The position numbers and the translations under genes are program-made. Positions 11,295 to 50,841 of a DNA stretch of 64,000 nt are shown piece by piece (the first letter of the stretch is position 1; every line of letters starts with the position of its first letter). Origin of the DNA: Candidatus Magasanikiibacteriota bacterium (GTDB taxonomy: Bacteria; Patescibacteriota; Patescibacteriia; Magasanikbacterales; GWA2-37-8); NCBI GenBank assembly GCA_041666745.1, contig JBAYGI010000002.1, positions 36,291 through 100,290 on the forward strand, in the 5' to 3' direction. The notes under the pieces are model-generated. The model ran no database searches. It was not told the origin of the DNA and was given only the letters and a program-made list of their open reading frames with translations.

Positions 11295-11304
11295 AGTAAA
11301 AAAA

Positions 11305-11337
11305 CCAGCCAAAGGGTTGACTTTTGGCTGGTTTTTG
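11305..11337 (+). terminator. Rho-independent terminator of recG (CCAGCCAAAG-loop-CTTTTGGCTGG + TTTTTG)
   Basis: Inverted repeat plus T-run immediately after recG stop. Confidence 0.6.
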
Positions 11338-11426
11338 TTTATAATGTCGACGTTTGGTGTTTGTCTGCAAAGTGTGGCGGAAGTTCCGTCGCTTGGTGTG
11401 GCTGCGCTAGACCAGAGGAGTAGAGA

Positions 11427-11723
11427 ATGGAAATCTGCTGTATCAAGTTGCCGCGTTTCGCGGTATCTACGGTGTCGAACGGCGAACCAGACCAGCTCAT
11501 ACATGTGAATGTGCGAGCAGGCCGGTATACCAAACAGGTCATCGTTCGAAGGGATGACGCGATTTCCCTGTTGAAGGGATATGCGGGCAACCGCACCATC
11601 GATTTCTACGACGCGCTCGATTCGGAAGTCCCGGCCGGACAGATTCTGGCCAAGGATATTCTCGCCGTCAATTTGCCACGGACATCAAGGAAACGGGACG
11701 GACTTTACCTTTGTGGCCGTTAG
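11427..11723 (+). CDS. Hypothetical 98-aa ORF inside GC-rich island (possibly non-coding)
   Basis: ATG ORF, GC3 ~65% unlike host genes; no recognisable domain. Confidence 0.2.
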   Translation: MEICCIKLPRFAVSTVSNGEPDQLIHVNVRAGRYTKQVIVRRDDAISLLKGYAGNRTIDFYDALDSEVPAGQILAKDILAVNLPRTSRKRDGLYLCGR

Positions 11724-11743
11724 GCGGCGGCTTCTCTGCTCGT

Positions 11744-11771
11744 AGGCCGCGGATCTCTCGATCCGCGGCCT
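11744..11771. terminator. Perfect 12-bp palindrome with 4-nt loop (AGGCCGCGGATC tctc GATCCGCGGCCT), likely bidirectional terminator between convergent transcription units
   Basis: Seen directly; located 10 nt from stop of minus-strand gene 11782..12387. Confidence 0.5.
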
Positions 11772-11781
11772 CAGCATTTAT

Positions 11782-12387
11782 TTAGGCGCTAAAGACGTAA
11801 GTTTTTTTCTCCGGATTTAATTTGTAAACTGTCCACGGTCCACTACCATATATTTTATCCAGTTCTTGTAACAAAGAACTTTTTTCATTACTGTGCACTA
11901 CCAACGTACGAGTGGTTTCATCGGCGTGGGCGACACTGTATGTTAAATCGATGGCTATATAATAACCTTTGTTGTGATTGGCCGGATCGGGTATTTCCAA
12001 CAGTCCAATACTGTGAAATTTAAAATGAGCAAAAGCGCCTTTGGTTGGATTTTCATTTTCCAAATCAGAATATTTGGCTTGAGGGTATCTTTCAAAAAAT
12101 TTTTTATCATCATCGTCGGTTTGGTTGACGAGCATTTTGCCAAAATCTTGGGTAGCACTACGACAATTGGCGGCATATTCTTTTTCGGTACCACGGTCGC
12201 CTCTCAAAGCAGTTCTATTTTTTGAACGATAAAATTGAGTAATTACTTCGTCGATATCAAGCATAATATTTTCTTTTTCCGGTCCTAGATCCAGACGGAC
12301 TTTTCCTTCGCGATCCAGATGTTGGGTAACCACTCGTGGTTTGTCTTTTGCTTCGATAGCTGTTCCATGTCTACGTTCGAAAGGCAT
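11782..12387 (-). CDS. Hypothetical protein (201 aa), last gene of long minus-strand operon
   Basis: Long ORF with host-like composition, 16 nt downstream of radA; no recognised motif. Confidence 0.5.
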   Translation of the reverse strand: MPFERRHGTAIEAKDKPRVVTQHLDREGKVRLDLGPEKENIMLDIDEVITQFYRSKNRTALRGDRGTEKEYAANCRSATQDFGKMLVNQTDDDDKKFFERYPQAKYSDLENENPTKGAFAHFKFHSIGLLEIPDPANHNKGYYIAIDLTYSVAHADETTRTLVVHSNEKSSLLQELDKIYGSGPWTVYKLNPEKKTYVFSA

Positions 12388-12403: not shown

Positions 12404-13759
12404 TTATTTTTGAATTATTTTTTCTACCACTTCCTGAACATTTTTTATCGGTGCTATTTTTAAACCGGTAATTTTTGGTAATTTTGAAGATAGTGGAACG
12501 ACCGCTATTTCCAGTCCTAGATTTTTTATTTCAGTTAATCTTTTTTCGGTATGGTTGACCGATCGAACCTCACCGCTTAATCCTACTTCGCCAAAGGCGG
12601 CCAAACCGGGTGGTAGGGTTTTGTCTTTTAATCCGGAAGCAATCGCCAATATGACCGCCAAGTCAGCGGCCGGTTCATCTGCGGTTAGACCACCAACAAC
12701 ATTTAAAAAAACATCATAACTGTCCAGTGGTAGTCCGGCTCGACGAGATAAAACACCAATCAGAACTTGTAATCGGTTCAAATCAAAACCGGAGGCGCGA
12801 CGTTGGGGGAAACCAAAATTGGTTTTGGTAACCAGTGCCTGAATTTCGATGAGCATTGGGCGAGTACCTTCCATGATGGCGGTGATAACTGTGCCGGACA
12901 CCGGTTCTTTTCTTTCAGAAATCATGACAGCGGACGGATTTTTCACTTCGACCAATCCGTCTTTTTCCATAGTAAATACACCGACTTCATCGGTTGGTCC
13001 AAAGCGATTTTTTGCCGCTCGCAAAATACGAAAATCATGGAAGCGGTCACCTTCGAGATAGAGGACAGTGTCCACTAAATGTTCCAAAGTTTTTGGTCCG
13101 GCCACACCACCATCTTTGGTAACCTGACCGACCAATATAAAAGTGATATTATTTTTTTTGGCTGCTTCCATGAGTTTCACGGTGCAAGCTCGCACTTGAG
13201 ATACATTGCCAGCCTCGCCTTCAACTTCGTCAGAATAAACTGTTTGAATGGAATCAATAATCGCCAGTTTGCATTTGCTGGATATGCTGGTAACAATAAT
13301 ACTTTCAATATTTGTAGTGCTGGCCAATTGTAAAGTAGAGGAAGTGATATTCAAACGTGAAGCGCGCATTTTTATTTGTTGGGTAGATTCTTCTCCGGAG
13401 AAATATATTGTTTCTGCAATAATATTGGCCAGTTGTAAAGCGAGGGTAGATTTACCGATGCCGGGTTCACCGCCAAGCAATATTAAACTCCCAGGGACTA
13501 TGCCACCACCCAACACTCTATCCAATTCAGAAATATTAGATTGAAAGCGTTTAAAATTTTGATTGGAAATTTCTTGAAGTTTTTCGGTTTTTATCGGGGA
13601 ATAATTTTTGGAAATGTCAGCCGTTTCTTTTTCTTTGTTGGTTGGCGCGTTCGTTTTTTCTACCGTGCCCCATTTTCCACATTCCAAACAACGCCCGGTC
13701 CATTTTTGGAATTGAGCGCCACAGTTGGAGCAGGTGAAAATAATTGGGTTATTTTTCAT
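12404..13759 (-). CDS. radA: DNA repair protein RadA/Sms
   Basis: N-terminal C4 zinc finger CSNCGAQFQKWTGRCLECGKWG, Walker A GGEPGIGKSTL, KNRFG motif, Lon-like C-terminal domain; ATG at 13759 (MKNNPIIF...). Confidence 0.9.
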   Translation of the reverse strand: MKNNPIIFTCSNCGAQFQKWTGRCLECGKWGTVEKTNAPTNKEKETADISKNYSPIKTEKLQEISNQNFKRFQSNISELDRVLGGGIVPGSLILLGGEPGIGKSTLALQLANIIAETIYFSGEESTQQIKMRASRLNITSSTLQLASTTNIESIIVTSISSKCKLAIIDSIQTVYSDEVEGEAGNVSQVRACTVKLMEAAKKNNITFILVGQVTKDGGVAGPKTLEHLVDTVLYLEGDRFHDFRILRAAKNRFGPTDEVGVFTMEKDGLVEVKNPSAVMISERKEPVSGTVITAIMEGTRPMLIEIQALVTKTNFGFPQRRASGFDLNRLQVLIGVLSRRAGLPLDSYDVFLNVVGGLTADEPAADLAVILAIASGLKDKTLPPGLAAFGEVGLSGEVRSVNHTEKRLTEIKNLGLEIAVVPLSSKLPKITGLKIAPIKNVQEVVEKIIQK

Positions 13760-13766
13760 GTGATAA

Positions 13767-15866
13767 TTATTTAACCGGACATCGTTCTGCGCCTTTGGCT
13801 GGTGGTATACATGGAGACAACCCTGTATAACCGGTAATACGACAATAATTTCCAGCTTTTTGTGCTTCAAAATGCCAATTTTCGGCGCCATATCTTACAA
13901 AACCGGCGCTATACATAATAGCAGAGAGGGCGGATACTCCTTGTAGATTGGCGTTGCATTGTTTTGATGCACTGAAAGCGCCATCAGAAAATACTTTACC
14001 ATCTTTCATTAATACTAAATCTACCGCATATCCGGTACCATGTGGAGAATTACCCGGTTTAGCGACACTACCGGATTTTACTCCTCCGGGTTCTTTATCC
14101 GCCAATGCTTTTTGAGAAGCTATACTCCTACATTTTGATCTTACTGAAATTACATATCCTTGAGCTGCCGCTTTTTTACCAGCGTTCATTAATTTATCGG
14201 CCGTTATTTTTAAAACAAAATTTTCTCTTAGATCTTTTTTTGCGACTACTGATAACCCCGGACATTTATTGTTTTTGCATGCAGCCACCATGTCAACCCA
14301 ATTTGATGGGGGAGCGGCGGGGTTGATTTTATCACAAGCACCTTTTTCGCCTTCTACCACTCCGCCAGCCATACCGGCCATGCCAGCTTCCATATCTGAG
14401 GTGTCAACGTCGTCAGGAAGATCTTGTTGTTCGATATATTGTACTTTCAACGCCTGAAAATTCACCAAATCCGGATTGATGGTATATAAAATTGTATAAG
14501 ATCCCCACGCAATCAGTAACCCTACCACAATTTGCCCGATTTTTTTAAAACCGTTGACACGTTCTTCACCACCCATAACTGTTATTTTTACTCCTACTAC
14601 AATTATCATTATCACCCCAATAATACTGATAGCCACCATGGCTACTTTGTAAATCGCCGACATGTATTCACCAATGTATGGGAGATGGAGAAACCCCTCA
14701 TCGTCCACACTATTTTCTACATCACTAAATTTTAGTTGAGGAATATTTATTTCTAGAACCGGTTTTCTGATTTGCAAATCGGCTGTGACACCAAAAAAAG
14801 ATATCGAACTTTTATATTTTTTCATTGAAGCTTCATCTAACCAGCAATAATTATCTTTACAAATACCGATTCCATCAAGACCGCTACAGTCGTTATCTAC
14901 TTGGCATTTTTTGTCACTTTTTGTGCAGGTAGTTGAACCGCAATTCATCATATCAGCGAAAGAGGTAACGTTGTCGGAATCTTTATAGGCACACAAATGG
15001 TAACTACCATCCAAAAAACAAGCACCAGCTTTTCCACTAGCCTGGCAGTCGGAGTCACTCTTACACTCACCAATAATGGTTAAAGTTTCTTTTGGATAGC
15101 ATATTTTATTTACACATATGGATGTTATTATTATTTCCCCAGATGAACAATCAGATTGTTGCGTACAGGTTTTAGTTTTTATATTTTTTATACATTCATC
15201 GTAAGTTTTATACAAAGTATTTGATCCGCAGTCATCAATTTTATTAGAGATACATTTATCGTCTACTTTACAAAATTGTCCCGTAGAAACTGTGGTTTTT
15301 TTAGTTTCGCATTTTTCTGATGTCAAAGTAGATGAATCGCCAAAATTAGTTACACCAGCTTTATTAAGAAAGAATTTATTTATCGTTGCTGAACACCCAC
15401 CACCTTTTTCTACTGGTACAGGTGTACAAGAAAAAGCTTGGTTAGTTTTGTTGTATGTTAAACAGTAAAATTCTTCTATAGTTAAGGGGTCTTTTACAAA
15501 TTCGCCATTTCCTAATAACATTTTTGTGCTTCGGCAGTAGTGCAAATTATAATCAAATGATTTGAAAGGAGATTTTTCACATTTCCAATCGCCACCATCT
15601 TTTGGTGTACCATACTCTGTGGTGCAATCCTCGTCTTTGTAGCAAGTACAAAAATACTGATTTTTTCCATCTTTTGTTAAGGTGGTTTCTTCACAATCTA
15701 GGTTGGCTCCTCCATATTCGCAATCAGTGTTGAGAATATCACTTACGCAAGGATCCCCAATTTTACTTTTGGCGGCCATGGCGCTATTTGGCAAAAATAC
15801 CAAAGCGAAGATTATTGCAAAAAATATTTTTATGATATTTTTATTTTTTGTCATATCATTTAACAA
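13767..15866 (-). CDS. Secreted Cys-rich protein (~50 Cys) with two TM helices and C-terminal peptidase M15 (VanY / LAS-type D,D- or L,D-peptidase) domain
   Basis: Signal peptide MTKNKNIIKIFFAIIFALVFLPNSAMA; many C-x4-6-D-C modules; TMs at ~aa 400-450; C-terminal SPHGTGYAVDL and ENWHFEA zinc-ligand motifs typical of M15 family. Confidence 0.7.
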   Translation of the reverse strand: MLNDMTKNKNIIKIFFAIIFALVFLPNSAMAAKSKIGDPCVSDILNTDCEYGGANLDCEETTLTKDGKNQYFCTCYKDEDCTTEYGTPKDGGDWKCEKSPFKSFDYNLHYCRSTKMLLGNGEFVKDPLTIEEFYCLTYNKTNQAFSCTPVPVEKGGGCSATINKFFLNKAGVTNFGDSSTLTSEKCETKKTTVSTGQFCKVDDKCISNKIDDCGSNTLYKTYDECIKNIKTKTCTQQSDCSSGEIIITSICVNKICYPKETLTIIGECKSDSDCQASGKAGACFLDGSYHLCAYKDSDNVTSFADMMNCGSTTCTKSDKKCQVDNDCSGLDGIGICKDNYCWLDEASMKKYKSSISFFGVTADLQIRKPVLEINIPQLKFSDVENSVDDEGFLHLPYIGEYMSAIYKVAMVAISIIGVIMIIVVGVKITVMGGEERVNGFKKIGQIVVGLLIAWGSYTILYTINPDLVNFQALKVQYIEQQDLPDDVDTSDMEAGMAGMAGGVVEGEKGACDKINPAAPPSNWVDMVAACKNNKCPGLSVVAKKDLRENFVLKITADKLMNAGKKAAAQGYVISVRSKCRSIASQKALADKEPGGVKSGSVAKPGNSPHGTGYAVDLVLMKDGKVFSDGAFSASKQCNANLQGVSALSAIMYSAGFVRYGAENWHFEAQKAGNYCRITGYTGLSPCIPPAKGAERCPVK

Positions 15867-16512
15867 TAAACTTCGTTAGCATCTCCGTAATATTTATGTC
15901 GTTTTCCAGATTGATTTTTTTGTTGTTCACATAAATTGTCGGAACTTGATCGATGCCGAGTGTCGTGGCCAGCGCGGTGGTGCGAGCGATTTTTTGCGTG
16001 GCTTCATCGGAGTTGGCGCATTGCCACCAACTTACCGTGTTTATTTTTAAACCGTCGGCAATTTTTGTGAGATCAGATTCGCTGGAAATATTTTTTTGAG
16101 TATTTAAAATATCCGTATACTGCCAATATTTTCCTTGTTTGCCGGCACAAAAGGCGCTACGGTGAGGAAGGTCGTTGATTTTGTAAAATAAATTTTTGCG
16201 AGGCATATCTTTTAAAAACAATCGGACATCTTGCGGGTGATCTCTGACAAATTTGGTGATTTCGTAGTATTTAAGTTTGCAGACCGGACAAGAAAAATCA
16301 CTAAACAACACTATCGTGAGTGGGGCACCCGGATTCCCAAGTATTTGATCATCGTTTTCTATTGGGATTTCATAAAAACCCTCGCTTAATATCGGAGTCG
16401 CGTTTGGTGTGACGGTAATTTTTTTGGTTTTAATTATTTGAGCGGCAAAAATTGAACCGGCGATGATTACCGCTAACAGCAATAATAAATAAAATTGTTT
16501 GGTTTTGTGCAT
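15856..16512 (-). CDS. DsbA/BdbD-like thiol-disulfide oxidoreductase (thioredoxin fold, CPVC active site), membrane-anchored
   Basis: N-terminal TM, ...LFSDFSCPVCKLKYYEI... CxxC motif; 11-nt overlap with downstream Cys-rich gene. Confidence 0.75.
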   Translation of the reverse strand: MHKTKQFYLLLLLAVIIAGSIFAAQIIKTKKITVTPNATPILSEGFYEIPIENDDQILGNPGAPLTIVLFSDFSCPVCKLKYYEITKFVRDHPQDVRLFLKDMPRKNLFYKINDLPHRSAFCAGKQGKYWQYTDILNTQKNISSESDLTKIADGLKINTVSWWQCANSDEATQKIARTTALATTLGIDQVPTIYVNNKKINLENDINITEMLTKFIVK

Positions 16513-16529
16513 ATTAGCGATAATTAAAA

Positions 16530-17768
16530 TTATAATTTAATTTCAAAGACACCATTTTGTAAAGTGTCGGTGAAGAAAACTTTATTTTTTGCTTGATCGT
16601 AATTAATATTTTTTATACTATAATCACCACCCAAAGACACGTTGGTTTTCAAGCCGGTTTTCAAATCAATTTTGTACATGTCATCGTTGTTGTAGGTAGC
16701 CACTTCCGGCATTATACCAGCTCCTTGTGGCAGGTCGCGTGGTACGGCGCAAAATAGGGTACTATCACCGGCAAAAGTACATTTGTCTGCCCAAGTATTT
16801 AGTTTTAACATTTGACGGTTATTACCAATGCTATCACCGTATGAGTCTGTTATCCAAAGCTCCGGTTTGAAATCACTGCGAGTGCTGTACACACTATACA
16901 AAAGTTTTTGACCAGTCGGTGACCATTGTGGTTGGAAACCCAACCCTTCAACAACTGTAGATTTAAAATTTTCTCCGTGTAGTCCAACAAACAATACTTC
17001 ACGTCTTTCGCCACCAAGCGCTTCACCGGTTTGAGAAAAGGCGACAGTCTGTCGGCTAGGCGACCAGTCAATCTGCACTTTGTCCGCGTTATTTCCCATT
17101 GGTTCTACCAGTGTGGTGCCACTACCATCATCGTTGACTGTGACTAACCAACGATTTTCCGGGGATAGGCCGATACTTTTGGCGGCGATTTGAGCGCCGT
17201 CAGGTGAAAAGGAAAATTCTTGCCAATGTTTTGGGAGAGTAGTTTGTTTTTGTTTTTCAAAATCATAAACAATTTTGGAACCATCCGGATATTCCAATAC
17301 TGCTTTGTCGTTTTTGCTTGCCCAAGTAGCGTTGCTGACATTATAAAAAGTCTGATCAGAAAGTGATTTGATTTGTCCATCACTGGTGAGACGATAAAAT
17401 TTGCCATCGGCAGAATTGTAATAGCGCATATTACCAGCTTGACTGAATCCAGGATAGGTCACAAAATCCGAAGTCAATTTGTTTACCGGTGCGGCTTGGA
17501 AGTAACCACCAGGAGTGACTTGAGGAATTGGTAGTGGAGCAGTTTCAACGCCCCGTTCCAGTTGTCCGCCTTCTCTTTTTTCAGCGGTAGTGGTCATGAT
17601 TCTTTCGCCAGCCCCCGGAAGTTGTCCGGCTTGTTCTGGTGTGATTTCAGCCGATGGAACCGTAGGGGTGGTCGCTTTTTTGAATAATGTATATAGACCA
17701 AAACCAATCAAGGCGGCTACGACTAGTAGGGCGATGATTAAAAGAATGCGTTTGAGAACTGGATTCAT
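16530..17768 (-). CDS. Membrane-anchored TolB-like / PD40 beta-propeller repeat protein
   Basis: N-terminal TM; repeated ...SPDG.../...WSP.GQ.. blades (FSFSPDGAQIAAKS, WSPSRQTVAFS, QWSPTGQKLLYS). Confidence 0.6.
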   Translation of the reverse strand: MNPVLKRILLIIALLVVAALIGFGLYTLFKKATTPTVPSAEITPEQAGQLPGAGERIMTTTAEKREGGQLERGVETAPLPIPQVTPGGYFQAAPVNKLTSDFVTYPGFSQAGNMRYYNSADGKFYRLTSDGQIKSLSDQTFYNVSNATWASKNDKAVLEYPDGSKIVYDFEKQKQTTLPKHWQEFSFSPDGAQIAAKSIGLSPENRWLVTVNDDGSGTTLVEPMGNNADKVQIDWSPSRQTVAFSQTGEALGGERREVLFVGLHGENFKSTVVEGLGFQPQWSPTGQKLLYSVYSTRSDFKPELWITDSYGDSIGNNRQMLKLNTWADKCTFAGDSTLFCAVPRDLPQGAGIMPEVATYNNDDMYKIDLKTGLKTNVSLGGDYSIKNINYDQAKNKVFFTDTLQNGVFEIKL

Positions 17769-17782
17769 ATATTTAAATTAAA

Positions 17783-19171
17783 TTAAGTTTTTTGTGGTTG
17801 ATTTTCAGTTTGTTGTTCCTGATTTTGTTGATTTTCTTTGGCTTTTTGTTCATCCAGATATTCTTTTCGAGATCTTCCGGTAGCGGCCATCAGACGGTTT
17901 ATGGTCAATATTTCTTTTCTCTTTTTTAATCGTTCTTTGGTCGGTTTCAACACTTCCTTTAATTGATCTATTATTTCAGTTACTTCTTTTTCTATTTTAT
18001 CTACTGCGGCTGTTAACCTGTCTTTTATTATGGCGAAGTTTTTGATCAATAAAATTAAGACTATAAAAGGTGATACAACAATCAACAAAAGTCCAGGAAT
18101 TACCGCCGCGGCAAAACCGGCCGCTATTATTCTTCCGGTACCGACAAGCGCCATGGATAAAGCAGTGGTAATTTTAGTTGCCTCCAAGGTTACTTTGATA
18201 GTTTGCAAAGTAATTAATTTTGTTTCCAGTATAGTAATTTTGGCTTCATCTTTCGCGTTTGATATACCCATGGTCACGCCCATGATGGCACTATAAATTG
18301 TTGGTAGAAAACGTCTCAACAACCACATTGCGCCACTAGATTTAACTCCATCCATTTTATTTTCCAATTTTCTCAAATCAGATTCTAGGTCTCTTCGTTT
18401 TTTACCAAGTTGTTTCAATCTTGATCGATCACTTTGTAAGCTATTTTTTATATTTTTGCCCAAATTTCCCGGTGCATTTTTAACAGCCTTTACAATATTT
18501 TTTGGCGCATCTTTGATCGCCTGTGCGCCACTTTTTATTTTATTAACTCTATCGGTGATACCACCTTTGACACTATCTTTCATTCTTCCACCCAAACTTT
18601 TTTTCTTTGCTTTGTCGGAAGCCATATTGGAAGCGGCGGATTCCTCACTGCCAGGAGGTACTTTTTCAGGGGCTTTATCGGTAGTTGGGTGTGGGCCGGT
18701 TTCTTCGAGAGCTTTGTCCGGGATAGTTTTTGGGGGAGTGGTGTCACGTTTTGTATCGGTTGGTTCAGGAGGAATTGGTTGCTCGTCCGCGGTATCTTCA
18801 GTAGGAGTGGGTGGGGTTTCTTTTTCGGTACCTGGCGGAGGTGTTTGTGGAGATGGGGTAGGAGGTGGAGGAGGAAGGGGTTGAACGGGTTGTTGTTGTG
18901 GCGGTGTTGCATCAGGCTGTGGTGAAGTTTCTTCTGGAACAGGCGGAATAGTGGGCGGAAATTTTGGAGTCGGCGGAATTTCTTCCGGAGGTGTGATTTC
19001 AGTTTTCGGAGTTTTTATTACCGGGGTTTCTAAACCTAATTGAATTTTTTCATCTTTGATTTTTGCACTGTTAACGCCGGATATACCTGTTATTTCAATA
19101 TTATTATCGGCAACTAGACCATTTCTTTCTAATTCTTGTCTAATAAGTTTTTGTTCGTCTGGCGTAGCCAT
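17783..19171 (-). CDS. Proline-rich low-complexity membrane protein (hypothetical)
   Basis: PT/PP-rich segment aa ~50-180, Lys-rich middle, C-terminal hydrophobic TM cluster; GC-rich antisense ORFs here are by-products of proline codons. Confidence 0.5.
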   Translation of the reverse strand: MATPDEQKLIRQELERNGLVADNNIEITGISGVNSAKIKDEKIQLGLETPVIKTPKTEITPPEEIPPTPKFPPTIPPVPEETSPQPDATPPQQQPVQPLPPPPPTPSPQTPPPGTEKETPPTPTEDTADEQPIPPEPTDTKRDTTPPKTIPDKALEETGPHPTTDKAPEKVPPGSEESAASNMASDKAKKKSLGGRMKDSVKGGITDRVNKIKSGAQAIKDAPKNIVKAVKNAPGNLGKNIKNSLQSDRSRLKQLGKKRRDLESDLRKLENKMDGVKSSGAMWLLRRFLPTIYSAIMGVTMGISNAKDEAKITILETKLITLQTIKVTLEATKITTALSMALVGTGRIIAAGFAAAVIPGLLLIVVSPFIVLILLIKNFAIIKDRLTAAVDKIEKEVTEIIDQLKEVLKPTKERLKKRKEILTINRLMAATGRSRKEYLDEQKAKENQQNQEQQTENQPQKT

Positions 19172-19176
19172 ACATA

Positions 19177-21687
19177 TTATTTAACAAACAATTGTTTATC
19201 CGCAATATCCAGAGTGTATTGTTTTTTATTTTTCTTTTTTAAAATCTCGCTAGTCATTAGTTTTTCCATTTCAGTGCGGAGTTGGCGACGGATAGTGCGG
19301 GCATTGGCATTGGTGTTTGGCAACGAGGCGATATATTCGGATAATATTTTTTCTTTGGTTTCTATTTTGGTGTGATACTGTGCCAGCTGTTCATTGAATT
19401 TAGTTATTTCCAATTCGGCAATTTTTGCCAGATCATTGGCAGTTAGAGAATTGAATAAACAAACTTTGTCCAGACGGTTTATTATTTCAGGAGAAAAATA
19501 TTCTTTCAGTTTCTCGCTGATTTTTTTGCTGTAGGCTTCGCTTTGGGAAGCTGTCCCGCCAAAACCAAAATCCGCACGTTTGGCGTCTTGAGCGCCTAGC
19601 GAAGTCGTTAGTATTATTATAGCATGTTTTAAAGAAATTTTCTTGCCCGTGGAGTCGGTGATTTCCCCATTTTCCAAAATTTGTAATAATAGCTTGGTGA
19701 CATCTTTGTGGGCTTTGTCTATTTCGTCAAATAACACCACACAATGTGGGTTGTTTTTTATTTTATCGGTAAAGTTGTTGCTTTCTTTGTAGCCAATATA
19801 ACCGGCGGGAGAGCCGAGTAATTTGGATACGCCAAAACTTTCGTTGAACTCGCTCATATTTAATTTTATAAACGAGTCTTTGTTTGGATAGAGAGTTTCC
19901 GTGATAGTTTTGGCCAATTCAGTTTTTCCCATGCCACTTTGCCCGACAAACATAAAAGAGGCCAGCGGTCTGTCCGGGTGGTTTAATCCCAATCGGGCGC
20001 GATTGATGGTTTCAGCGACCTCGTGGATGACATTGTCTTGACCGATTACCAAAGTTTTTAATTTTTCTTCCAGATCCAATAATTCATTTTTTTCTTCCAT
20101 GATTAGTTCACTTGGTTTGGATCCGATAATTTTGGCGATTTGTTCCAACACATCGTGGTCGGTAATTTCTCCCAAAAATTTAGCTTGTTTTTCTTTGGCG
20201 ATTTTATTTTCTTTTTCTATTTCTTTGCGTAATTTTTCTTCCTGCATTTTGAGTTTTACCGCTTCATCGAATTTGTCAGATAGGGCGGCGGCTTCTTTGT
20301 CTGAAATAATCTTTTCCAATTTTTGTTTTAGGCGTTCTATTTTTCCAATCCAAGAAGAACTTTTGGAGTTGATTCGTTTGGCGGCGGCGGTCTCGTCCAG
20401 GATGTCGATCGCTTTGTCCGGTAAAAATTTGTTGGTGATATATCTTTCAGAAAGGCGAACGGCGGCTTCGACGGCTGATTTATTAATTTTAATATTATGG
20501 AAAATTTCGTAATTGGTTTTGATACCTTCCAATATTTTGACCGAATCTTCAACTGATGGTTCTTTGACAAAAATTGGCTGAAAACGGCGTTCTAGAGCGG
20601 AATCGCTTTCGATGTATTTTTTAAATTCATTTAAAGTCGTAGAACCAACACAACGAATTTGGCCACGCGCCAAGGCCGGTTTTAAAATGTTGGCGGCATC
20701 CATAGTGCCTTGGTTACTGCCGGCGCCGACAATGTTGTGTAGTTCGTCAATAAATAAAATAATATTGGGGTTGGCAATGACATCGTCGATTACTTGTCGC
20801 AGTCGTCCTTCGAATTCACCGCGATAAATTGTGCCGGCGATCAGCAGTCCCATATCCAACGCGTAGATTTTTTTGTTTAATAAAATATCCGGAACTTTGT
20901 TTTGCAAAATACGTTTGGCCAAACCTTCGATGATTGCAGTTTTGCCCACACCCGGATCACCCAGTAATACGGGATTATTTTTGGTGCGACGACAGAGAAT
21001 TTGGATTAGACGTTCGATTTCATTTTCGCGACCAATAATCGGGTCGATATTTTTTTGCAATTCCGGATTGGTCAAATTGGTGGCAAAAAAATCCAAAGCG
21101 GTTTCTTTTTTGTTGTTGCGTTTGTTGGTTTTTGGTAGGGGGGTATTATTATGTTCCGGACCAAACATATTTTCTTGCATTTTGTCTACTGCTTCCATCA
21201 CCTCGTTTATTTGCGGAAATTGCGAGGTGTTGGTGAGTACCGCGTTTAATTGTTTATAAATATCCGCCAAAGTAAGATGGTTATTTTTCAAAATTAAATT
21301 AATAGTAGGATTGTTGAGATCCACAATTCCTTTTAATAAATGTTCGGTACCGATATAGTTGTGGGCATGTTCTTGGGCAATCACCATGGCTTTTTCAATA
21401 GCGGTTTTGCAATCCGTAGATATTGGCGGTATTTGCAATTCGGCTGTGCCGGAAGATTTTTTCCCTGTTTTGGTGGCAGTCGGTAGTTCTAAAATTATTT
21501 TTTCAACATCTTTCAAGTCTACTTTTAAACGATTCAAAATTTCGGCCGCTACCGAGCCTTTTTGATTCTGCAAAATAAAAAACAGATGGATTGGTTCCAC
21601 TTCTTTATTTTCCAGTTTGGCGGCTAATTGGAAACTTTTGCTAAGAACGTCTTTGAGGTGGGTGGAAAATCTATCTAATATGGACAT
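19177..21687 (-). CDS. clpC: AAA+ chaperone ClpC/ClpB family (two nucleotide-binding domains)
   Basis: 836 aa; Clp_N repeats; Walker [11 protein letters not shown] and [10 protein letters not shown]; Walker B FIDELH / LFDEIDKAH; short middle domain suggests ClpC-type. Confidence 0.85.
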
Positions 21688-21769
21688 AATTACCCAGTTT
21701 AGTTGCTTTAAGAATAGGGATATTATATAATAAAAGAGTCTAATTTACAAGCTAAAAAAAGATAAAAAT

Positions 21770-36211: not shown

Positions 36212-36250
36212 AAACTCCGCAAAACAACTTGCGGAGTTTTTTTATTTTTC
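36212..36250 (+). terminator. Rho-independent terminator of pheT (AAACTCCGCAA-loop-TTGCGGAGTTT + T-run)
   Basis: 11-bp stem then TTTTTTATTTTT. Confidence 0.7.
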
Positions 36251-36257
36251 AAATTTG

Positions 36258-36266
36258 TGGTATAAT
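36258..36266 (+). promoter_or_regulatory. Extended -10 promoter element TGgTATAAT upstream of PAS gene
   Basis: TG-N-TATAAT 40 nt upstream of ATG 36307 with GGAGG RBS. Confidence 0.4.
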
Positions 36267-36306
36267 TTCTATAGTAAGAAACTCGTTTAATATAAAAATT
36301 TATCAT

Positions 36307-36828
36307 ATGGAGGAAATCAACTACCAAAAAGCGTTAAAAGATCTGGAAGCATCCGAAAAACGCTATCGTCGGTTGTTTGAAACAGCGCAAGACGGTGTTC
36401 TTATAATAGATTTTAATACGGGGATAATTTTAGATGTTAATCCATTTTTGGTTGATATGCTGGGCTATTCCAAAGATGATTTATTAAAAAAATATCTTTG
36501 GGATGTTGGCTTTTTGAGAGATGTGGTCGCTTCCAAGGAAAATTTTATGGCCTTGCAGACTGAAAAACTTGTTCGTTTTGAAGATTTACCATTGGAAACC
36601 AAAGACGGAAAAAGGAAAGACGTAGAATTTGTCGCCAATGCTTATCAGGTAAATGGAGATCATGTGATTCAATGCAATATCCGCGATATCACCGCTCGTA
36701 AAAAAGCCGAAAGCCAGTTGAAAGAAAAAATGGAGGAATTAGAAAAAATGAATCAAGCGATGATTGGCAGGGAATTGGAAATGGTAAAGTTGAAGGAAAA
36801 AATAAAGGAGTATGAAAATAAAAAGTAA
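36307..36828 (+). CDS. PAS domain-containing protein (stand-alone sensor)
   Basis: ...YRRLFETAQDGVLIIDFNTGIILDVNPFLVDMLGYSKDDLLKKYLWDV... PAS fold; C-terminal coiled coil. Confidence 0.7.
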   Translation: MEEINYQKALKDLEASEKRYRRLFETAQDGVLIIDFNTGIILDVNPFLVDMLGYSKDDLLKKYLWDVGFLRDVVASKENFMALQTEKLVRFEDLPLETKDGKRKDVEFVANAYQVNGDHVIQCNIRDITARKKAESQLKEKMEELEKMNQAMIGRELEMVKLKEKIKEYENKK

Positions 36829-39244
36829 AATCTTTTTAAATTTGTTTTTAATTTCCATTTTTTCTGTGGCAGTAGTGTCCGGCTCTATTTATTATTTCGG
36901 TCGTCAAATAATTATAGATAATATTGCCAGTTACAATTATATTTTGGCGCAAAATGATATTGACGCGGTCGATCGTTTTGTTGATCGTCGATTGGAACGA
37001 TGGCAGTCGTATGTTTCCAGCAACACAGATTTATGGAATGCTTTGCATCAGTCGAATGATAAATTTGCAAAAATGGATGGTCGTGAAGTGTTTATAAAAA
37101 CTGAAGATGATGCTTGGAAAAAGGAAGACAAAAATACAATCACTCCATTCATGAAAACTATTTTGGAGAATCCTATTTCCGATGGTTTGCGATTGCGTAC
37201 GGCTTTTTATGAAAAACAATCCGGTTACAAAATCTTTCCTGAATTTTTTGTTACCAACAAATATGGGGCGTTGATAGCCACTACCAATAAGACCACTGAC
37301 TATCTCCAGTCCGATGAAGATTGGTGGCAAAAGGCCGAAGATGAGGGTGTGTGGGTCGGTGACCTATCTTTTGATGAGAGCAGTGGTGTAAATGGCTTGG
37401 AGTTTTGTATTCGCATTGATGATAACGAAGGTAATTTTGTGGGGGTGGCTAAAATTATCTATAATATTAAAGATATTTCCAATATTATTGATAGTGTTAT
37501 AAAACCACTGGCGAGCGGTGTTGAAATTACCAGTTTAGGTTTTACTCGCAAAACAGTTAATGTTAGTTTGCTCACCAAAGATAGGAAATTAATTTATTCA
37601 ACGAAAAGTGGTTTTGGTAATTTAAAGGATTATCCTTTTTCTTCCATATTAAATACAATGATTGATAGTCGCAAGCCATATTTGGTGGCTACGGTGGATG
37701 GAACAGAAAAACTGTTTAGTCATGGCGATTCTCTCGGGTATAGTGATTTTAAAGGATTTGGTTGGTCGTTGATGGTAGAAAAAGATACACAAGAAGTATT
37801 GGCGCCTCTGGGGGTATTGTTGAATTGGTTATTTGTTTCTATTTTGGTAGTTTTTGGTCTCGTAGTTATATTGGCGCTGTGGTTGTCTAGTTCTTTTAAT
37901 AAACCGATTAAAAAATTAATGCAAAAAGTGGAGCAAGTGGAAAATGGTGACCTAGACATTAAATTAGAATCGTTAAGTCGTGATGAAATTGGTCAATTGG
38001 CCAAATCATTTGGAGATATGGTGGTGGCGGTAAAGGAATCTCGTCGAGAAATAAATAAAAAAGTGGAAGAGCAAACCGCGGAAATTAGACAAAAGTCTTC
38101 AGATTTAATTGATAAACAAAAAGCCATTTTAAATATTTTGGAAGATGTTAAAACTGAGAAAGAAAATGTTGAACGCGAACGTGACAAAGTGAACGCGATT
38201 TTGCATGGTATTGGTGACGGAGTATTTGTGGTGGATAAAGATTATAAAATTACAGTATTCAATTCAGTGGCGGAAAATATTTCCGGTTTTAGCGTGAAAG
38301 AAGTGATCGGAAAGCGTTATAATTCGGTATTAAAGTTTGTGTTTGAAAAAGATGAAAAAGTTCAAGACGAATTTGTGCGTAGCGCTATGGAGAGTGGTAG
38401 GGTTAAACAAATGTCCAACCATACTGTGATGGTGCGTAAAGATGGTCAGCATATGCCGGTAGCTGATTCGGCGGCTCCGCTAAAAGATGAAAAAGGCAAG
38501 GTTGTCGGTTGTGTAGTGGTATTTCGCGATGTTACAAAGGAAAGAGAAATTGATAAAATGAAATCCGAGTTTGTTTCAGTAGCTTCGCATCAATTGAGTA
38601 CACCGCTTACCGGTATAAAATGGTTTACCGAATTGTTGTTGAAAAATAAATTAAGCCCAACCGCCAAAGATTATGTGAAGCAAATTGCTGTCAGCAATGA
38701 GCGCATGGTGCATTTGGTGGATGATCTATTGAATGTTTCGCGCATAGAAACCGGACGAAAGTTCGATATATTACCGGTCGAAGTGGATGTAGTGTCTATT
38801 TTAAATCAAGTGATAGACGCCCAAAATGTATTGGCCCCTCTTAAAAAATTAAAAATCGAATTGGAAAAATCTTCTCCCCAAAAATTAATTTTATTGGTGG
38901 ATGGTGAAAAAATGCGTCAGGTATTTCAAAATCTCGTCAACAATGCCTTTAAATATTCCAAAGAAGGCGGTCATGTCGAAGTTGGTATTAAAGAAGATAA
39001 AAATGCGGTGGTTTTTTATGTAAAAGATAGGGGAATTGGAATACCAGAGAATCAACAGCATAGATTATTCGAGAAATTTTTTCGAGCCACCAATGCTTTA
39101 ACCGCGCATACCGATGGTACCGGTCTAGGTTTGTATATCATAAAAGCGATTGTCGAGGGTCATAAAGGAAAAGTTTGGTTTGAATCAAAAGAAAATGTAG
39201 GAACAACTTTCTTTGTTTCTTTACCAATTTTGAGTAAAAAATAA
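36812..39244 (+). CDS. Membrane sensor histidine kinase (TM - ~300-aa extracytoplasmic sensor - TM - HAMP - PAS - HisKA - HATPase_c)
   Basis: H-box SVASHQLSTPLTGI, G-boxes DRGIGIP...GTGLGLYIIK; two TMs flanking periplasmic domain. Confidence 0.85.
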   Translation: MKIKSKIFLNLFLISIFSVAVVSGSIYYFGRQIIIDNIASYNYILAQNDIDAVDRFVDRRLERWQSYVSSNTDLWNALHQSNDKFAKMDGREVFIKTEDDAWKKEDKNTITPFMKTILENPISDGLRLRTAFYEKQSGYKIFPEFFVTNKYGALIATTNKTTDYLQSDEDWWQKAEDEGVWVGDLSFDESSGVNGLEFCIRIDDNEGNFVGVAKIIYNIKDISNIIDSVIKPLASGVEITSLGFTRKTVNVSLLTKDRKLIYSTKSGFGNLKDYPFSSILNTMIDSRKPYLVATVDGTEKLFSHGDSLGYSDFKGFGWSLMVEKDTQEVLAPLGVLLNWLFVSILVVFGLVVILALWLSSSFNKPIKKLMQKVEQVENGDLDIKLESLSRDEIGQLAKSFGDMVVAVKESRREINKKVEEQTAEIRQKSSDLIDKQKAILNILEDVKTEKENVERERDKVNAILHGIGDGVFVVDKDYKITVFNSVAENISGFSVKEVIGKRYNSVLKFVFEKDEKVQDEFVRSAMESGRVKQMSNHTVMVRKDGQHMPVADSAAPLKDEKGKVVGCVVVFRDVTKEREIDKMKSEFVSVASHQLSTPLTGIKWFTELLLKNKLSPTAKDYVKQIAVSNERMVHLVDDLLNVSRIETGRKFDILPVEVDVVSILNQVIDAQNVLAPLKKLKIELEKSSPQKLILLVDGEKMRQVFQNLVNNAFKYSKEGGHVEVGIKEDKNAVVFYVKDRGIGIPENQQHRLFEKFFRATNALTAHTDGTGLGLYIIKAIVEGHKGKVWFESKENVGTTFFVSLPILSKK

Positions 39245-39247
39245 AAT

Positions 39248-41125
39248 ATGCCAAAATCAAAATTAATCAGCAAGTGCATGGCCGAGCATGAAAGCGGGCA
39301 ATGTCACCTTTTTCGTCTGTTTTTTGAATACAGTCCGGATCCGATGTTTATCGAAACTATCGATGGAAAAATACTAGACTGCAATGTGTCTGCTTTGAAA
39401 ATGTTGGGCTATACCAAACATGAAATGTTGAGTTTGAATGTGGAGGATTTAATCCCAAAAGATAAAAGAAAAATTTTGCCGGAAATAATGAAGAAAATAA
39501 TTCATGTCGGTTCCGCTGTTTTGGAAAGTGAAAATATCAAAAAAGACGGTTCAGTTGTCCAAGTAGAAGCGCATTTAAAACTGATTCATCAAGAGGGGCG
39601 ACCACTAATATTTGCGGTAGTTGTAAATATTGGGCACCATAAAAAGATTGAAAAAGATTTAAAAGATAGTGAGGAAAAGTATAGAACTTTGTTTTTGCAC
39701 CAAGATGCGATCCTTGCTTCTATTCCGGATATTATCATGGAAGTTGATAAAAACAAGGTATATACTTGGGCAAACAAAAAGGGTTTTGAATTTTTTGGAG
39801 CTGACGTATTAGGTAAACGAGCGTCTCATTATTTTATAGGCAAACAAGCAACTTACAAAATAGTCGAGCCTCTTTTTGTTGGTACAAAAGATGCTATATA
39901 TGTGGAAAGTTGGCAAAGAAGAAAGGATGGAGAAAAACGATTGCTGGCTTGGTGGTCCAGATCGTTAAAAGATGATCAAGGAAATATTATTGGCGCAATT
40001 TCTACAGCGCGTGATGTTACCGATTATAGGTTGATGGAGGAAAAATTAATAGAAAACAAAAAAAGAGATGAAATCGTCTTTAGTTCAATCGTAGATACAA
40101 TTTTTGTTTGCGATAAAAAGGGTAAAATTTTAAATTTTAACAAAGCGGCTGAGAATTTGACTGGTATTTCTGCGAAAGAAGCAATCGGGAGTCATTATCA
40201 CAGAGTGTTTAGTTTTGTTGAAGAGGTTAGCAATAAACCTAGCTATGATTTTATAGTTGAAGCGATAGAAAAAGAAAAAATAATAAAAAATATCAACCAC
40301 ATGATGCTTGTTTTGAAAGATGGGAGAAAGATATCGATATCCGGGTCAACCGCGCCAATAAAGAATACTAAAGAAGGGACGGTTGGATGTGTGGTGACAT
40401 TGCGAGATATAACAAAAGAAAGAGCGGTGGATAAAACAAAATCAGAATTTGTTTCCGTAGCTTCGCATCAGTTGCGTACACCACTCACTGGTATTAAATG
40501 GTTTGTTGAATTGTTATTAAAAAATAAATTAAGTCCAACCGTAAAAGATTATATTGATCAAATCGCTATCAGCAATGAGCGTATGATACGTTTAGTGGAC
40601 GATTTGTTGAGTGTCTCACACATAGAAACAGGGCGAAGGTTTAATGTGGTTGCAAATGTTGTAGATGTAGTACCTGTTTTAAGACAGATTATGGATGAAC
40701 AGCGTTTGTTGGCCAAGTTGAAGAAAGTGGAATTAGTGTGCAGTAAAACCGCTCCATTGGAATTAATACTGAAGGTGGATGTAGAAAAAATACGGATAAT
40801 ATTTCAAAATTTAATCAGTAATGCTGTTAAATATTCAAAAAAAGGCGGTAAGGTGGAAGTGGGTTGCGAACAGCAAGACAAACAGGTGGTTTTCTATGTA
40901 AGAGACTTTGGTTTTGGTATACCGGATAGTGATAAGCATAGAATTTTTGAAAAGTTTTTTCGTGGTGAAAATGCTTTGTTGGCCAATACCGATGGTACGG
41001 GGCTGGGTCTTTTTATCGTGAAGGCGGCCGTAGAAGATCATGGAGGTGAGATTTGGTTTGAATCACAAAAAAATAAAGGTTCAACCTTTTATTTTTCTTT
41101 GCCGACGGTGAATAAAAAAAATTGA
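39248..41125 (+). CDS. Cytoplasmic multi-PAS sensor histidine kinase, paralog of upstream kinase
   Basis: Three PAS/PAC modules, H-box SVASHQLRTPLTGI, HATPase_c; C-terminal ~240 aa highly similar to 36812..39244. Confidence 0.85.
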   Translation: MPKSKLISKCMAEHESGQCHLFRLFFEYSPDPMFIETIDGKILDCNVSALKMLGYTKHEMLSLNVEDLIPKDKRKILPEIMKKIIHVGSAVLESENIKKDGSVVQVEAHLKLIHQEGRPLIFAVVVNIGHHKKIEKDLKDSEEKYRTLFLHQDAILASIPDIIMEVDKNKVYTWANKKGFEFFGADVLGKRASHYFIGKQATYKIVEPLFVGTKDAIYVESWQRRKDGEKRLLAWWSRSLKDDQGNIIGAISTARDVTDYRLMEEKLIENKKRDEIVFSSIVDTIFVCDKKGKILNFNKAAENLTGISAKEAIGSHYHRVFSFVEEVSNKPSYDFIVEAIEKEKIIKNINHMMLVLKDGRKISISGSTAPIKNTKEGTVGCVVTLRDITKERAVDKTKSEFVSVASHQLRTPLTGIKWFVELLLKNKLSPTVKDYIDQIAISNERMIRLVDDLLSVSHIETGRRFNVVANVVDVVPVLRQIMDEQRLLAKLKKVELVCSKTAPLELILKVDVEKIRIIFQNLISNAVKYSKKGGKVEVGCEQQDKQVVFYVRDFGFGIPDSDKHRIFEKFFRGENALLANTDGTGLGLFIVKAAVEDHGGEIWFESQKNKGSTFYFSLPTVNKKN

Positions 41126-49219: not shown

Positions 49220-49612
49220 ATGTTTGGAAGAAAAAAAGTTATATCTAAAAAAATATTGATCGTAGAAGATGATTCGTTATTGGTCAAAGTTTTGTCCGCT
49301 AGTTTTTTAGAAGAAAAATTTCAGGTAGTTACGGTTGAAAATGGTTTGGAAGTGATGGAGGCGGTAAAGAAATTTTCTCCCGATATGATTTTGTTGGATT
49401 TGATCATCCCCGGCATTGATGGATTTGCCGTTCTCAAACAACTCAAAGAAGATGATGCTACCAAAAATATTCCGGTAGCTATTATGTCCAATTTGGGTTC
49501 AGTTAGTGATGTGAAATCCACCAAAGCGCTTGGCGCCGATGAATATTTCATCAAGGCCAATACCGAGATGGAAAAAATAGTTAAATATGTTAAAAATAAA
49601 CTAAAAATTTAA
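49220..49612 (+). CDS. Single-domain response regulator (CheY-like receiver)
   Basis: ILIVEDD...DMILLDLIIPGIDG...K; 130 aa, no output domain. Confidence 0.8.
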   Translation: MFGRKKVISKKILIVEDDSLLVKVLSASFLEEKFQVVTVENGLEVMEAVKKFSPDMILLDLIIPGIDGFAVLKQLKEDDATKNIPVAIMSNLGSVSDVKSTKALGADEYFIKANTEMEKIVKYVKNKLKI

Positions 49613-49613
49613 T

Positions 49614-49997
49614 ATGCCAAAATCAGAAAAAAAGACGATACTAATAGTAGAGGATGACGAGGTGTTGTTGCGCGCTTTGTATCTGATGTTTCACAAAAGT
49701 GAATATACGATTGCGTCGGCTACCGATGGTGATACCGCTCTCAAGATGACACAGCGCTTGAAACCGGATTTGGTTCTGCTTGATTTACTGTTGCCAAAGA
49801 TGAATGGTTTTCATTATTTAAAGTTTTTAAAAGATCAGCCGGATATCAAAAATATTCCAGTTATTGTTTTGTCCAATTTAGGAGATAAAGAAAACATAGA
49901 AAAAGCAAAGGCATTGGGAGCCCTTGACTATTATATCAAATCAGACACAGATTTGACTGTGTTGGCCGACAAAGTAAAGAAACTTTTAAAAGGTTAA
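49614..49997 (+). CDS. Single-domain response regulator (CheY-like receiver), second copy
   Basis: ILIVEDDEVLL...DLVLLDLLLPKMNG...; 127 aa. Confidence 0.8.
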   Translation: MPKSEKKTILIVEDDEVLLRALYLMFHKSEYTIASATDGDTALKMTQRLKPDLVLLDLLLPKMNGFHYLKFLKDQPDIKNIPVIVLSNLGDKENIEKAKALGALDYYIKSDTDLTVLADKVKKLLKG

Positions 49998-50840: not shown

Positions 50841-50841
50841 T

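Follow-up and report, generated by a model that had tools for sequence, protein, structure and literature searches.

A conserved clpC-radA locus of Magasanikbacteria places a DsbA-like protein beside a Cys-rich M15 peptidase built around a pilin-type hairpin

Patescibacteria (the candidate phyla radiation, CPR) account for much of bacterial diversity, and most of them live attached to other microbes. The zinc peptidases LdcB/DacB and VanY (MEROPS M15B) act on peptidoglycan stem peptides outside the cytoplasm, are membrane-anchored in monoderms, and have a common fold and active site made up of SxHxxGxAxD, ExxH and the Arg/Gln of SxxRxxxxQ; the ExxH site of the VanY/LdcB type is typical of trimming carboxypeptidases rather than lysins. 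DsbA-family oxidases, as in the BdbD/BdbC pair of Bacillus subtilis and among the Dsb-like proteins of F-type conjugation (TrbB, TraF), serve pilin-type or transfer-apparatus envelope proteins. In polymorphic toxins and effectors, a conserved module is joined to many unrelated enzyme domains, paralogs stand in tandem, and evolution is faster than in neighbouring genes. Monoderm type IV secretion systems (T4SSs) employ VirB1-type hydrolases (PrgK, TraG of pIP501, CwlT, TcpG), which are encoded inside T4SS clusters and combine a plain N-terminal membrane anchor with SLT, CHAP, NlpC/P60 or M23 domains (PMC12102498), and Patescibacteria encode VirB2-like pilins (PF18895), with arrays in Southlakia epibionticum and TM7x, in which a hydrophobic two-helix hairpin with a short loop follows a Sec signal. 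Here we describe, in a 64,000-nucleotide stretch (the window) of a Candidatus Magasanikiibacteriota genome (GCA_041666745.1, contig JBAYGI010000002.1, positions 36,291 to 100,290), a block of four minus-strand genes between clpC and radA that encodes a Pro-rich membrane protein (gene X), a beta-propeller, a DsbA-like oxidoreductase and a Cys-rich protein with an M15 peptidase domain (the hydrolase). The components are of known kinds: an M15 peptidase, a DsbA, a PD40 propeller and a VirB2-like hairpin. Their combination, in which a pilin-type hairpin is the conserved core of a large polymorphic hydrolase family and DsbA and a propeller share its fixed operon, appears to be undescribed in the searchable literature.

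What the hydrolase shares with its relatives is a membrane-spanning core. In 56 database homologs the region common with the query is aa ~360-485 only, and the domains on either side are exchanged: C-terminal cargo comprises VanY, M15_4, Amidase_2, Peptidase_C39_2, SLT, GDSL and NlpC/P60 plus metallophosphatase, and the N-terminal Cys-rich domains measure from 0 to ~430 aa. A further 99 cluster representatives carry VanY (16), SLT (14), Amidase_2 (13), C39_2 (12), C70 (6), GDSL (5) and M23 (3), with GH18, glucosaminidase and CHAP as singletons. Among 92 open reading frames (ORFs) from related loci, Pfam reports T4SS_pilin in 60, VanY in 17, Amidase_2 in 8, C39_2, GDSL and SLT in 6 each, M15_4 in 4, Metallophos in 3 and CHAP in 2. 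Tandem paralogs have cores that are 42-100% identical and flanks that are often unrelated. On these alignments, M15 is one of many interchangeable cargo domains on the hairpin core, and the N-terminal domain is swapped as well. All 56 family members have 6-44 Cys outside the membrane core, four of them with one or two in the aligned core window, and this general Cys richness fits the fixed DsbA neighbour.

The core consists of a juxtamembrane strand (LEINIPQLKFSD...YLHLPYIGEY), transmembrane (TM) helix 1, a GGEER loop, TM helix 2 and a NPDLVNF..LKVxYIE segment. AlphaFold places the two helices at 392-426 and 430-459 (numbering of the 695-aa protein; predicted local distance difference test, pLDDT, 80-89), and the hairpin, for which we found no fold match in the PDB, is predicted to turn a short loop into the cytoplasm and to have both ends outside. 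The query matches TrbC/VirB2 (PF04956) weakly (aa 414-461, E 0.0066, 17.1 bits against a cutoff of 27.9) and itself gives no PF18895 hit at E<=0.1. Distant homologs that align through the core at E 1e-15 to 1e-33 score above the PF18895 T4SS_pilin threshold (27.2-31.2 bits), and 53 of the 99 cluster representatives and 60 of the 92 locus ORFs match this profile at E<=1e-3. By the profile matches of these relatives the core is homologous to the Patescibacterial VirB2-like T4SS_pilin hairpin. The family is very large: a core profile searched against 1.84 billion cluster representatives returned 27,642 proteins at E<=1e-3, 8,478 at E<=1e-10 and 600 at E<=1e-30. No core relatives were found in the viral contigs of IMG/VR, and a phage origin of the core was set aside.

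Its members differ from pilins in several respects. A mature pilin measures ~70-120 aa and is mostly hairpin, whereas the hydrolase has 695 aa, with ~320 aa before and ~230 aa after the hairpin; all but one of the best 150 core-profile matches span 340-830 aa, and the 93 complete hairpin ORFs in related loci have a median of 525 aa (range 238-943). The family thus embeds the hairpin in 340-940-aa proteins between large extracellular domains, adds conserved juxtamembrane strands and is encoded away from virB4, trsD and virB3, although it often forms tandem, sequence-divergent copies as the pilins do (PMC12102498). The likeness to polymorphic toxins, in the conserved module with its many unrelated enzymes, the tandem paralogs and the fast evolution, is similarly partial: here the hairpin module is central and membrane-embedded, the chromosomal slot is near-universal in the lineage, and we saw no cognate immunity gene next to the hydrolase; both here and at most loci, the gene immediately after it is radA. 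At one locus a small cupredoxin-like gene lies between two hairpin paralogs.

In the hydrolase studied here, the C-terminal cargo reads, in sequence and model alike, as an intact LAS/M15 peptidase domain, as the first-pass annotation of the window had proposed. PF02557 (VanY) matches marginally with 26.4 bits against a cutoff of 25, and PF01427 (Peptidase_M15) fails with 24.2 bits against 27. The SxHxxGxAxD motif lies at nt 14019-14048 (SPHGTGYAVD, aa 607-616) and ExxH at nt 13872-13883 (ENWH, aa 662-665), and R580, Q585, H609, D616, E662 and H665 are invariant among 29-31 aligned relatives. The domain is modelled at pLDDT 90-98, and Foldseek matches it with probability 1.0 to VanX (1r44), LdcB (4ox3 and 4mph), the phage endolysin Ply500 (2vo9) and VanY (5hnm), and also to VanXY and ChiX. 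Among PDB sequences the best match is Ply500, restricted to the N-terminal half, and YodJ/LdcB is matched as well; we take the ExxH motif to group the domain with VanX/VanY/LdcB and not with DxxH endolysins. Identity to LdcB/DacB/VanY is ~20-30%, and the operon enzyme is predicted to share their extracytoplasmic, membrane-anchored placement. It differs from them in its anchor, an internal two-helix pilin-like hairpin instead of an N-terminal TM helix or lipid, and in adding a 320-aa, 30-Cys domain before the hairpin and 8 Cys in the catalytic domain.

An NCBI record with the identical protein ('M15 family metallopeptidase', Candidatus Magasanikbacteria) begins at ATG 15854 and has 695 aa. With this start, a single nucleotide separates the dsbA TGA from the hydrolase gene, and the ortholog at related locus L001 also begins right behind the dsbA stop; the 11-nt overlap of the two genes described earlier holds if TTG 15866 is the start and disappears with the NCBI start. 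A signal peptide (MTKNK...SAMA, cleavage predicted before the next A), two TM helices (aa ~396-463) and the C-terminal M15 motifs are all present, as first noted. The count of ~50 Cys has to be lowered to 38: the N-terminal part (aa 36-400) accounts for 30 and the C-terminal domain for 8, while the membrane part lacks Cys altogether. Enrichment is still far above chance, at 5.4% of the whole protein (~8x) and 8.2% of aa 36-400 compared with 0.65% in the other 42 ORFs of the window. Of the C-x4-6-D-C-rich modules then described, the sequence bears out just 8 overlapping matches to the wider C-x3-7-D-C. In N-domain columns, Cys is 91% conserved versus 26% for other columns, a pattern that marks a fast-evolving surface domain with a disulfide scaffold. 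The Cys-rich domain is modelled at pLDDT mostly 70-94 and has neither a Pfam match nor a PDB fold match.

The full-length hydrolase model has a pLDDT of 79.3, with low-confidence acidic linkers around the hairpin (pLDDT <50 at 351-362 and 474-497, same numbering) and no more than ~70 residues of tether between TM2 and the peptidase. The segment ahead of TM1 carries a net charge of -4, the loop one of +1 and the segment behind TM2 one of -7. With a signal peptide predicted to be cleaved, an even number of TM helices and charge distributed in this way, both the N-terminal Cys-rich domain and the peptidase are predicted to lie outside the cell. A missing M15 profile match or a cytoplasmic peptidase would have spoken against the initial proposal; the VanY profile does match, and the topology suggests an external peptidase. 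That proposal's secreted factor has to be amended, in that the protein is predicted to be held in the membrane by its two-helix hairpin. A free secreted exoprotein was rejected in favour of this membrane-tethered form on the AlphaFold helices and the topology.

The product of the gene just upstream was correctly recognised as a DsbA-like oxidoreductase from the start. It scores 57.5 bits with Thioredoxin_4 (cutoff 23.2) and 38 bits with DSBA (cutoff 25.6), carries a CPVC active site (nt 16279-16290, aa 75-78) whose CxxC is kept in four orthologs, and has a second Cys pair at aa 122 and 165. Its PDB relatives are 3gyk, Wolbachia DsbA1 (3f4s) and B. subtilis BdbD (3eu3). With a hydrophobic N-terminal anchor at aa 4-30, the protein is predicted from its sequence to be membrane-anchored and extracytoplasmic. 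It resembles BdbD, TrbB and TraF as a DsbA-family oxidase and differs from those systems in two ways: as its substrate we presume a hydrolase fusion that may have as many as 19 disulfides, and no DsbB/BdbC/VKOR partner is present among the Pfam-scanned ORFs, a scan that covered ORFs from 11782 to 50840, about half of those in the window, with ORFs below ~11.3 kb (the ribosomal-protein region and recG) and 49614-49997 lying outside it.

The adjacency of the DsbA gene and the gene for the exported Cys-rich protein, pointed out in the first-pass annotation, is conserved. Scanning one genome per species yielded 396 core relatives, of which 79 loci were kept, and every long contig examined but one shows the arrangement pgm(-), clpC, X, propeller, dsbA, hairpin gene(s), radA, recG(-). 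Where enough upstream sequence is available, dsbA lies directly upstream of the hairpin gene in 56/59 loci, the propeller is present in 56/59 and both are present in 55/59; radA follows within 3 kb in 54 of the 60 loci with enough downstream sequence. The clpC flank is syntenic in nearly all related loci, the propeller-DsbA-hairpin order is retained down to ~40% ClpC identity, and 23 loci hold two to four tandem hairpin genes. Divergence is uneven: identity to the L001 locus is 92% for RadA, 86% for ClpC, 82% for the propeller, 72% for DsbA, 50% for the hydrolase and 36% for X. One hairpin paralog pair adjoins mraZ-rsmH and murJ. We conclude that the block is a vertically inherited envelope operon core of Magasanikbacteria (Patescibacteria class ABY1) that is inserted between clpC and radA.

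The presence of radA had at first been read as an unusual functional mix. clpC and radA are neighbours in the Bacillus clpC operon. CtsR is noted to regulate radA and disA (PMC10633939). The adjacency of clpC and radA is ancestral in monoderm clpC operons and the envelope block was inserted between them, so the radA neighbourhood reflects this ancestral linkage and not function; a functional link of radA to the envelope block was set aside.

Many metagenome-assembled genome records with the locus (L018-L088) are titled 'uncultured Gammaproteobacteria bacterium', and one 'Candidatus Udaeobacter'; these titles are placeholders or wrong taxonomy, as gene content and synteny are those of Magasanikbacteria-like CPR. 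Some genomes, as at L074 (8514-15833) and L076 (5236-9216), contain arrays of three to five hairpin-family genes of 300-575 aa. Most C-terminal domains in arrays of this type have no Pfam match, the flanking genes are leuS and rpoC rather than T4SS genes, and the L074 array again stands behind a DsbA homolog.

The remaining two genes of the block encode membrane proteins. The propeller protein consists of a TM helix (aa 3-30), a disordered linker of ~55 aa (aa 33-88) and the propeller proper (aa 95-411), which AlphaFold, using database homologs, models with about seven blades at pLDDT 82.7 and a predicted template modelling score of 0.72. A PD40 match just over threshold agrees with the fold in identifying a PD40-type beta-propeller. 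This part of the earlier 'TolB-like' label stands, and the TolB part does not: TIGR02800 gives 18.9 bits against a cutoff of 343. TolB combines a TolA-binding N-terminal alpha/beta domain with a six-bladed propeller and has tol-pal neighbours, and the operon protein has none of these. It is a membrane-anchored extracytoplasmic PD40 propeller, not TolB.

Gene X, rightly described before as coding for a Pro-rich membrane protein on its proline content and hydrophobic windows, evolves fast. Its product has a Pro-rich N-terminal region of ~280 aa that lacks a signal peptide and is probably disordered, is hydrophobic at aa ~286-307 and ~334-378, and has a coiled-coil tail of basic character. It belongs to no Pfam or NCBIfam family, and a homolog search with its C-terminal half returned no matches, not even gene X itself; the family was traced by position in related loci only. 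There the clpC-propeller interval always holds a gene of 1-2.5 kb, which is 36-49% identical to gene X in close relatives and unalignable in distant ones.

The pilin homology raises the question of a link to secretion. The 2025 census of Patescibacterial T4SSs treats PF18895 hits as VirB2-like pilins, notes tandem pilin arrays and makes no mention of pilin-hydrolase fusions (PMC12102498); apart from this census and one structure-clustering preprint, PF18895 does not occur in the searchable literature. The hairpin family resembles the VirB1-type hydrolases in joining a membrane anchor to wall-degrading domains and differs from them in occupying the clpC-radA slot together with DsbA and the propeller. 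No VirB4, VirD4, VirB6 or other T4SS gene was found among the Pfam-scanned ORFs of the window, and no VirB4-like P-loop ORF lies within +/-10 kb of ~88 related loci. By length, P-loop position or, where available, precomputed Pfam, the remaining P-loop ORFs resemble FtsH, PilB, Der, UvrA or MutS, apart from a gene X ortholog and a 785-aa ORF of L015 that stayed unassigned. A T4SS gene cluster around the block was accordingly rejected for the scanned ORFs of the window, for the L074/L076 arrays and for the large P-loop ORFs of the ~88 loci. In one Magasanikbacteria genome, GCA_000992085.1, the census table lists virB4, trsD and virB3 (PMC12102498), and the hairpin-SLT protein at its clpC-radA locus (L021; KKQ40794.1) does not figure among the census entries of this genome; T4SS machinery and hairpin module coexist there and are not linked. 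Transposon sequencing in Southlakia and reviews describe the pilin array and the T4SS as essential and of unknown function; among such systems, essentiality for growth has been shown for the Patescibacterial VirB2-like pilins with their T4SS alone (PMC10633639, PMC12857230).

We favour, with moderate confidence, a DsbA-matured, hairpin-anchored wall-remodelling module at the producer's own surface, in which the propeller and X recognise a conserved juxtamembrane handle. Sec would export the hydrolase and its signal peptide would be removed, after which the two-helix hairpin would retain the protein in the cytoplasmic membrane, with its short basic loop in the cytoplasm and with the 30-Cys N-terminal domain and the VanY/LdcB-type zinc peptidase outside the cell. 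The membrane-anchored DsbA would make its disulfides, and the peptidase would cut or trim peptidoglycan stem peptides at the cell surface. Hairpin and juxtamembrane strands would form the 'handle', with the enzyme and the N-terminal domain as exchangeable cargo. This handle would dock the enzyme to conserved membrane partners, for which the highly conserved anchored propeller and the variable Pro-rich gene X product are the best candidates, and the resulting module would act mainly on the producer's own wall or contact surface. Own-surface remodelling is favoured because the slot is fixed and near-universal in the lineage, because the cargo follows mostly the classical autolysin spectrum (VanY/M15, Amidase_2, SLT, M23, NlpC/P60, CHAP, glucosaminidase), because the short peptidase tether suits a nearby substrate, and because one paralog pair lies beside mraZ and murJ.

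Several points weigh against this account. The VanY match barely exceeds its threshold, a DsbB-type partner is missing among the scanned ORFs, and a contact of the hairpin with the propeller or with gene X is a proposal of ours. Compared with its neighbours, the hydrolase gene changes much more quickly, from one related genome to another the catalytic domain is exchanged wholesale, and some cargo is not obviously wall-directed (GDSL, metallophosphatase, EEP, C39/C70, GH18), a pattern that would also fit an arms-race effector. The hairpin is, moreover, homologous to the pilins of a secretion system that is essential for the epibiotic growth of Saccharibacteria (PMC10633639, PMC12857230). Host peptidoglycan as the target, as suggested in the first-pass annotation, is speculation.

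These last points lead to the most serious competitor, in which the proteins are host-directed pilin-effector fusions: a T4SS encoded elsewhere would extract them and place them as minor or tip pilus subunits, or otherwise present them, so that the wall-degrading enzyme and the Cys-rich adhesin-like domain reach the host wall where the episymbiont touches it. Solved structures of conjugative pili have both termini of the pilin on the outside, and terminal fusions would therefore be displayed. The PF18895 homology of the core, with some relatives above the gathering threshold, the weak TrbC/VirB2 match of the query, the polymorphic, fast-diverging and partly non-wall cargo, the presence of VirB4, TrsD and VirB3 in locus-bearing GCA_000992085.1 and the essentiality of pilin arrays and T4SS in Southlakia (PMC10633639, PMC12857230) are all in keeping with it. 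Yet neither the scanned window ORFs nor the surroundings of the ~88 loci supply the VirB4-type genes, nearly every genome has the locus as a fixed housekeeping slot, a VirB2-type filament could hardly accommodate subunits with domains of 200-350 aa at both termini, no immunity-like gene is seen, and the ExxH site is of the carboxypeptidase type. We consider this reading unlikely, if worth keeping in view. Its boldest form appears more doubtful still: VirB2-type subunits would have turned into carriers that a T4SS pulls from the membrane, so that enzymes that cut the wall and Cys-knot adhesin domains are displayed on a host-reaching pilus or at its tip, with the propeller-DsbA operon as their maturation line.

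A further reading, close to that of the first-pass annotation, is a released soluble lysin, with the hairpin as a transient anchor and proteolysis at one or both sides freeing the Cys-rich domain, the peptidase or both to lyse neighbours. The low-confidence acidic linkers beside the hairpin could be cleavage sites, heavy disulfide bonding suits extracellular life, and the best PDB sequence match is a phage endolysin. That match, however, covers the N-terminal half only and the motif is the ExxH of LdcB, VanY and VanX rather than DxxH; the juxtamembrane segments are the most conserved of the family, which is hard to square with a disposable anchor, and no conserved protease site or dedicated protease was identified. 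We judge such release very improbable. About equally slim is the chance that no functional module exists, with four independent envelope genes packed together in a compact genome, DsbA as a general oxidase and the hairpin as an ordinary anchor that resembles pilins by chance. CPR genomes are gene-dense, this DsbA may be the sole copy in the genome, helical hairpins are low in information and the query falls below the PF18895 threshold. But the propeller-DsbA-hairpin order persists in 55/59 genomes while surrounding genes vary, the core identity of 60-80% between paralogs with unrelated flanks far exceeds what a generic anchor needs, and 600 proteins match the core profile at E<=1e-30.

Coordinates are collected in Table 1. 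The four genes are consecutive on the minus strand with gaps of 17 nt or less, as originally described (14 nt between gene X and the propeller gene, 17 nt between the propeller and DsbA genes); 5 nt separate the end of clpC from gene X, and 7 nt separate the hydrolase stop codon from the likely radA start (13759), which corresponds to M45 and agrees with ortholog lengths of 446-468 aa. The candidate promoter, placed by its consensus match, is likely to be the start of a clpC...radA transcription unit, and the terminator is the probable end of both the minus-strand unit and plus-strand recG. None of the short intergenic gaps of the clpC...radA run contains a terminator-like site, which we count in favour of a single transcription unit, and no structured RNA or tRNA was found within the four-gene block. 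The genes around the block in the window include those for ribosomal proteins, secY, recG, radA, clpC, pgm, acetyl-CoA synthetase, htpX, lemA, rseP, pheST, histidine kinases and leuS.

Table 1. Positions of the four genes, their flanks and the parts of the hydrolase within the window.
Feature	Position	Strand	Description and basis
Candidate sigma-70-like promoter, clpC-pgm divergent intergenic region	21722-21750	minus	TTGTAA-17-TATAAT, 10/12 matches; consensus match only
clpC-type AAA+ chaperone gene, upstream flank	19177-21687	minus	Clp_N, AAA, AAA_lid_9, AAA_2 and ClpB_D2-small domains
Gene X (Pro-rich membrane protein)	17783-19171	minus	462 aa, 51 Pro; ORF
PD40 beta-propeller gene	16530-17768	minus	412 aa; ORF
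DsbA-like gene	15856-16512	minus	218 aa; ORF
Cys-rich/M15 hydrolase gene	13767-15854 (ATG, 695 aa) or 13767-15866 (TTG, 699 aa)	minus	ORF
Predicted Sec signal peptide MTKNKNIIKIFFAIIFALVFLPNSAMA	15774-15854	minus	Sequence; model helix aa 2-20; predicted cleavage after AMA
Cys-rich ectodomain, aa 32-350, 30 Cys	14817-15773	minus	Repeated C-x5-C-x8-10-C-x4-8-C knots
Family-defining core, aa ~360-485	14412-14789	minus	Sole segment aligned in all 56 homologs
TM helical hairpin, VirB2/T4SS_pilin-like, aa 396-463	14478-14681	minus	AlphaFold helices and weak TrbC/VirB2 match
M15 (LAS) zinc peptidase domain, VanY/LdcB type	13836-14243	minus	VanY hidden Markov model, fold, catalytic residues
radA/sms, downstream flank	12404-13759	minus	TIGR00416 542 bits
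Palindromic terminator, 16-bp stem	11300-11336		

Beyond radA, the interval up to recG is variable. In the window it holds a 201-aa ORF (11782-12387), and in L003 (11165-13588), L014, L011, L023, L031 and L049 an ORF of 800-850 aa on the opposite strand, for which the L003 and L004 copies have no precomputed Pfam match. Next to it lies a 487-nt intergenic stretch (11295-11781) with a guanine-cytosine content of 53%, compared with 39% for the window, that has not been conserved in related loci except for the recG terminator. On the plus strand it contains a near-consensus sigma-70 promoter (11317-11345, 11/12 matches) with no plus-strand gene ahead; its predicted RNA fold has z = -3.8 and a GC-rich terminal hairpin without an Rfam match, and tblastn finds no relatives of its 98-aa ORF (11427-11723) in the related loci compared. 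The stretch may represent a small RNA specific to the strain or an insert of foreign DNA. At the far end of the window, an open frame of >4389 codons on the plus strand (50833-64000) runs past the window end; with N-terminal hydrophobic segments, Thr/Ser-rich repetitive beta-type sequence and zero Cys, it probably encodes a giant CPR surface protein. At 36229-41125 and 49220-49612, a signalling cluster notably dense for a reduced CPR genome combines a PAS protein, two PAS/HAMP histidine kinases and a stand-alone receiver.

For the biology of this group, the locus supplies testable candidates for wall remodelling or host attack in uncultured bacteria. It indicates that the pilin-type hairpin has a second role, as the handle conserved throughout a very large family of surface enzymes, mostly peptidoglycan hydrolases, in which 'VirB2-like' and 'VirB1-like' functions are joined in a single polypeptide. 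If the proteins were indeed pilin-type carriers, they would represent a previously unknown form of effector delivery and would explain the need for pilins and T4SS on hosts. If the module is only an autolysin anchor, the label 'T4SS pilin' on thousands of CPR proteins needs qualifying.

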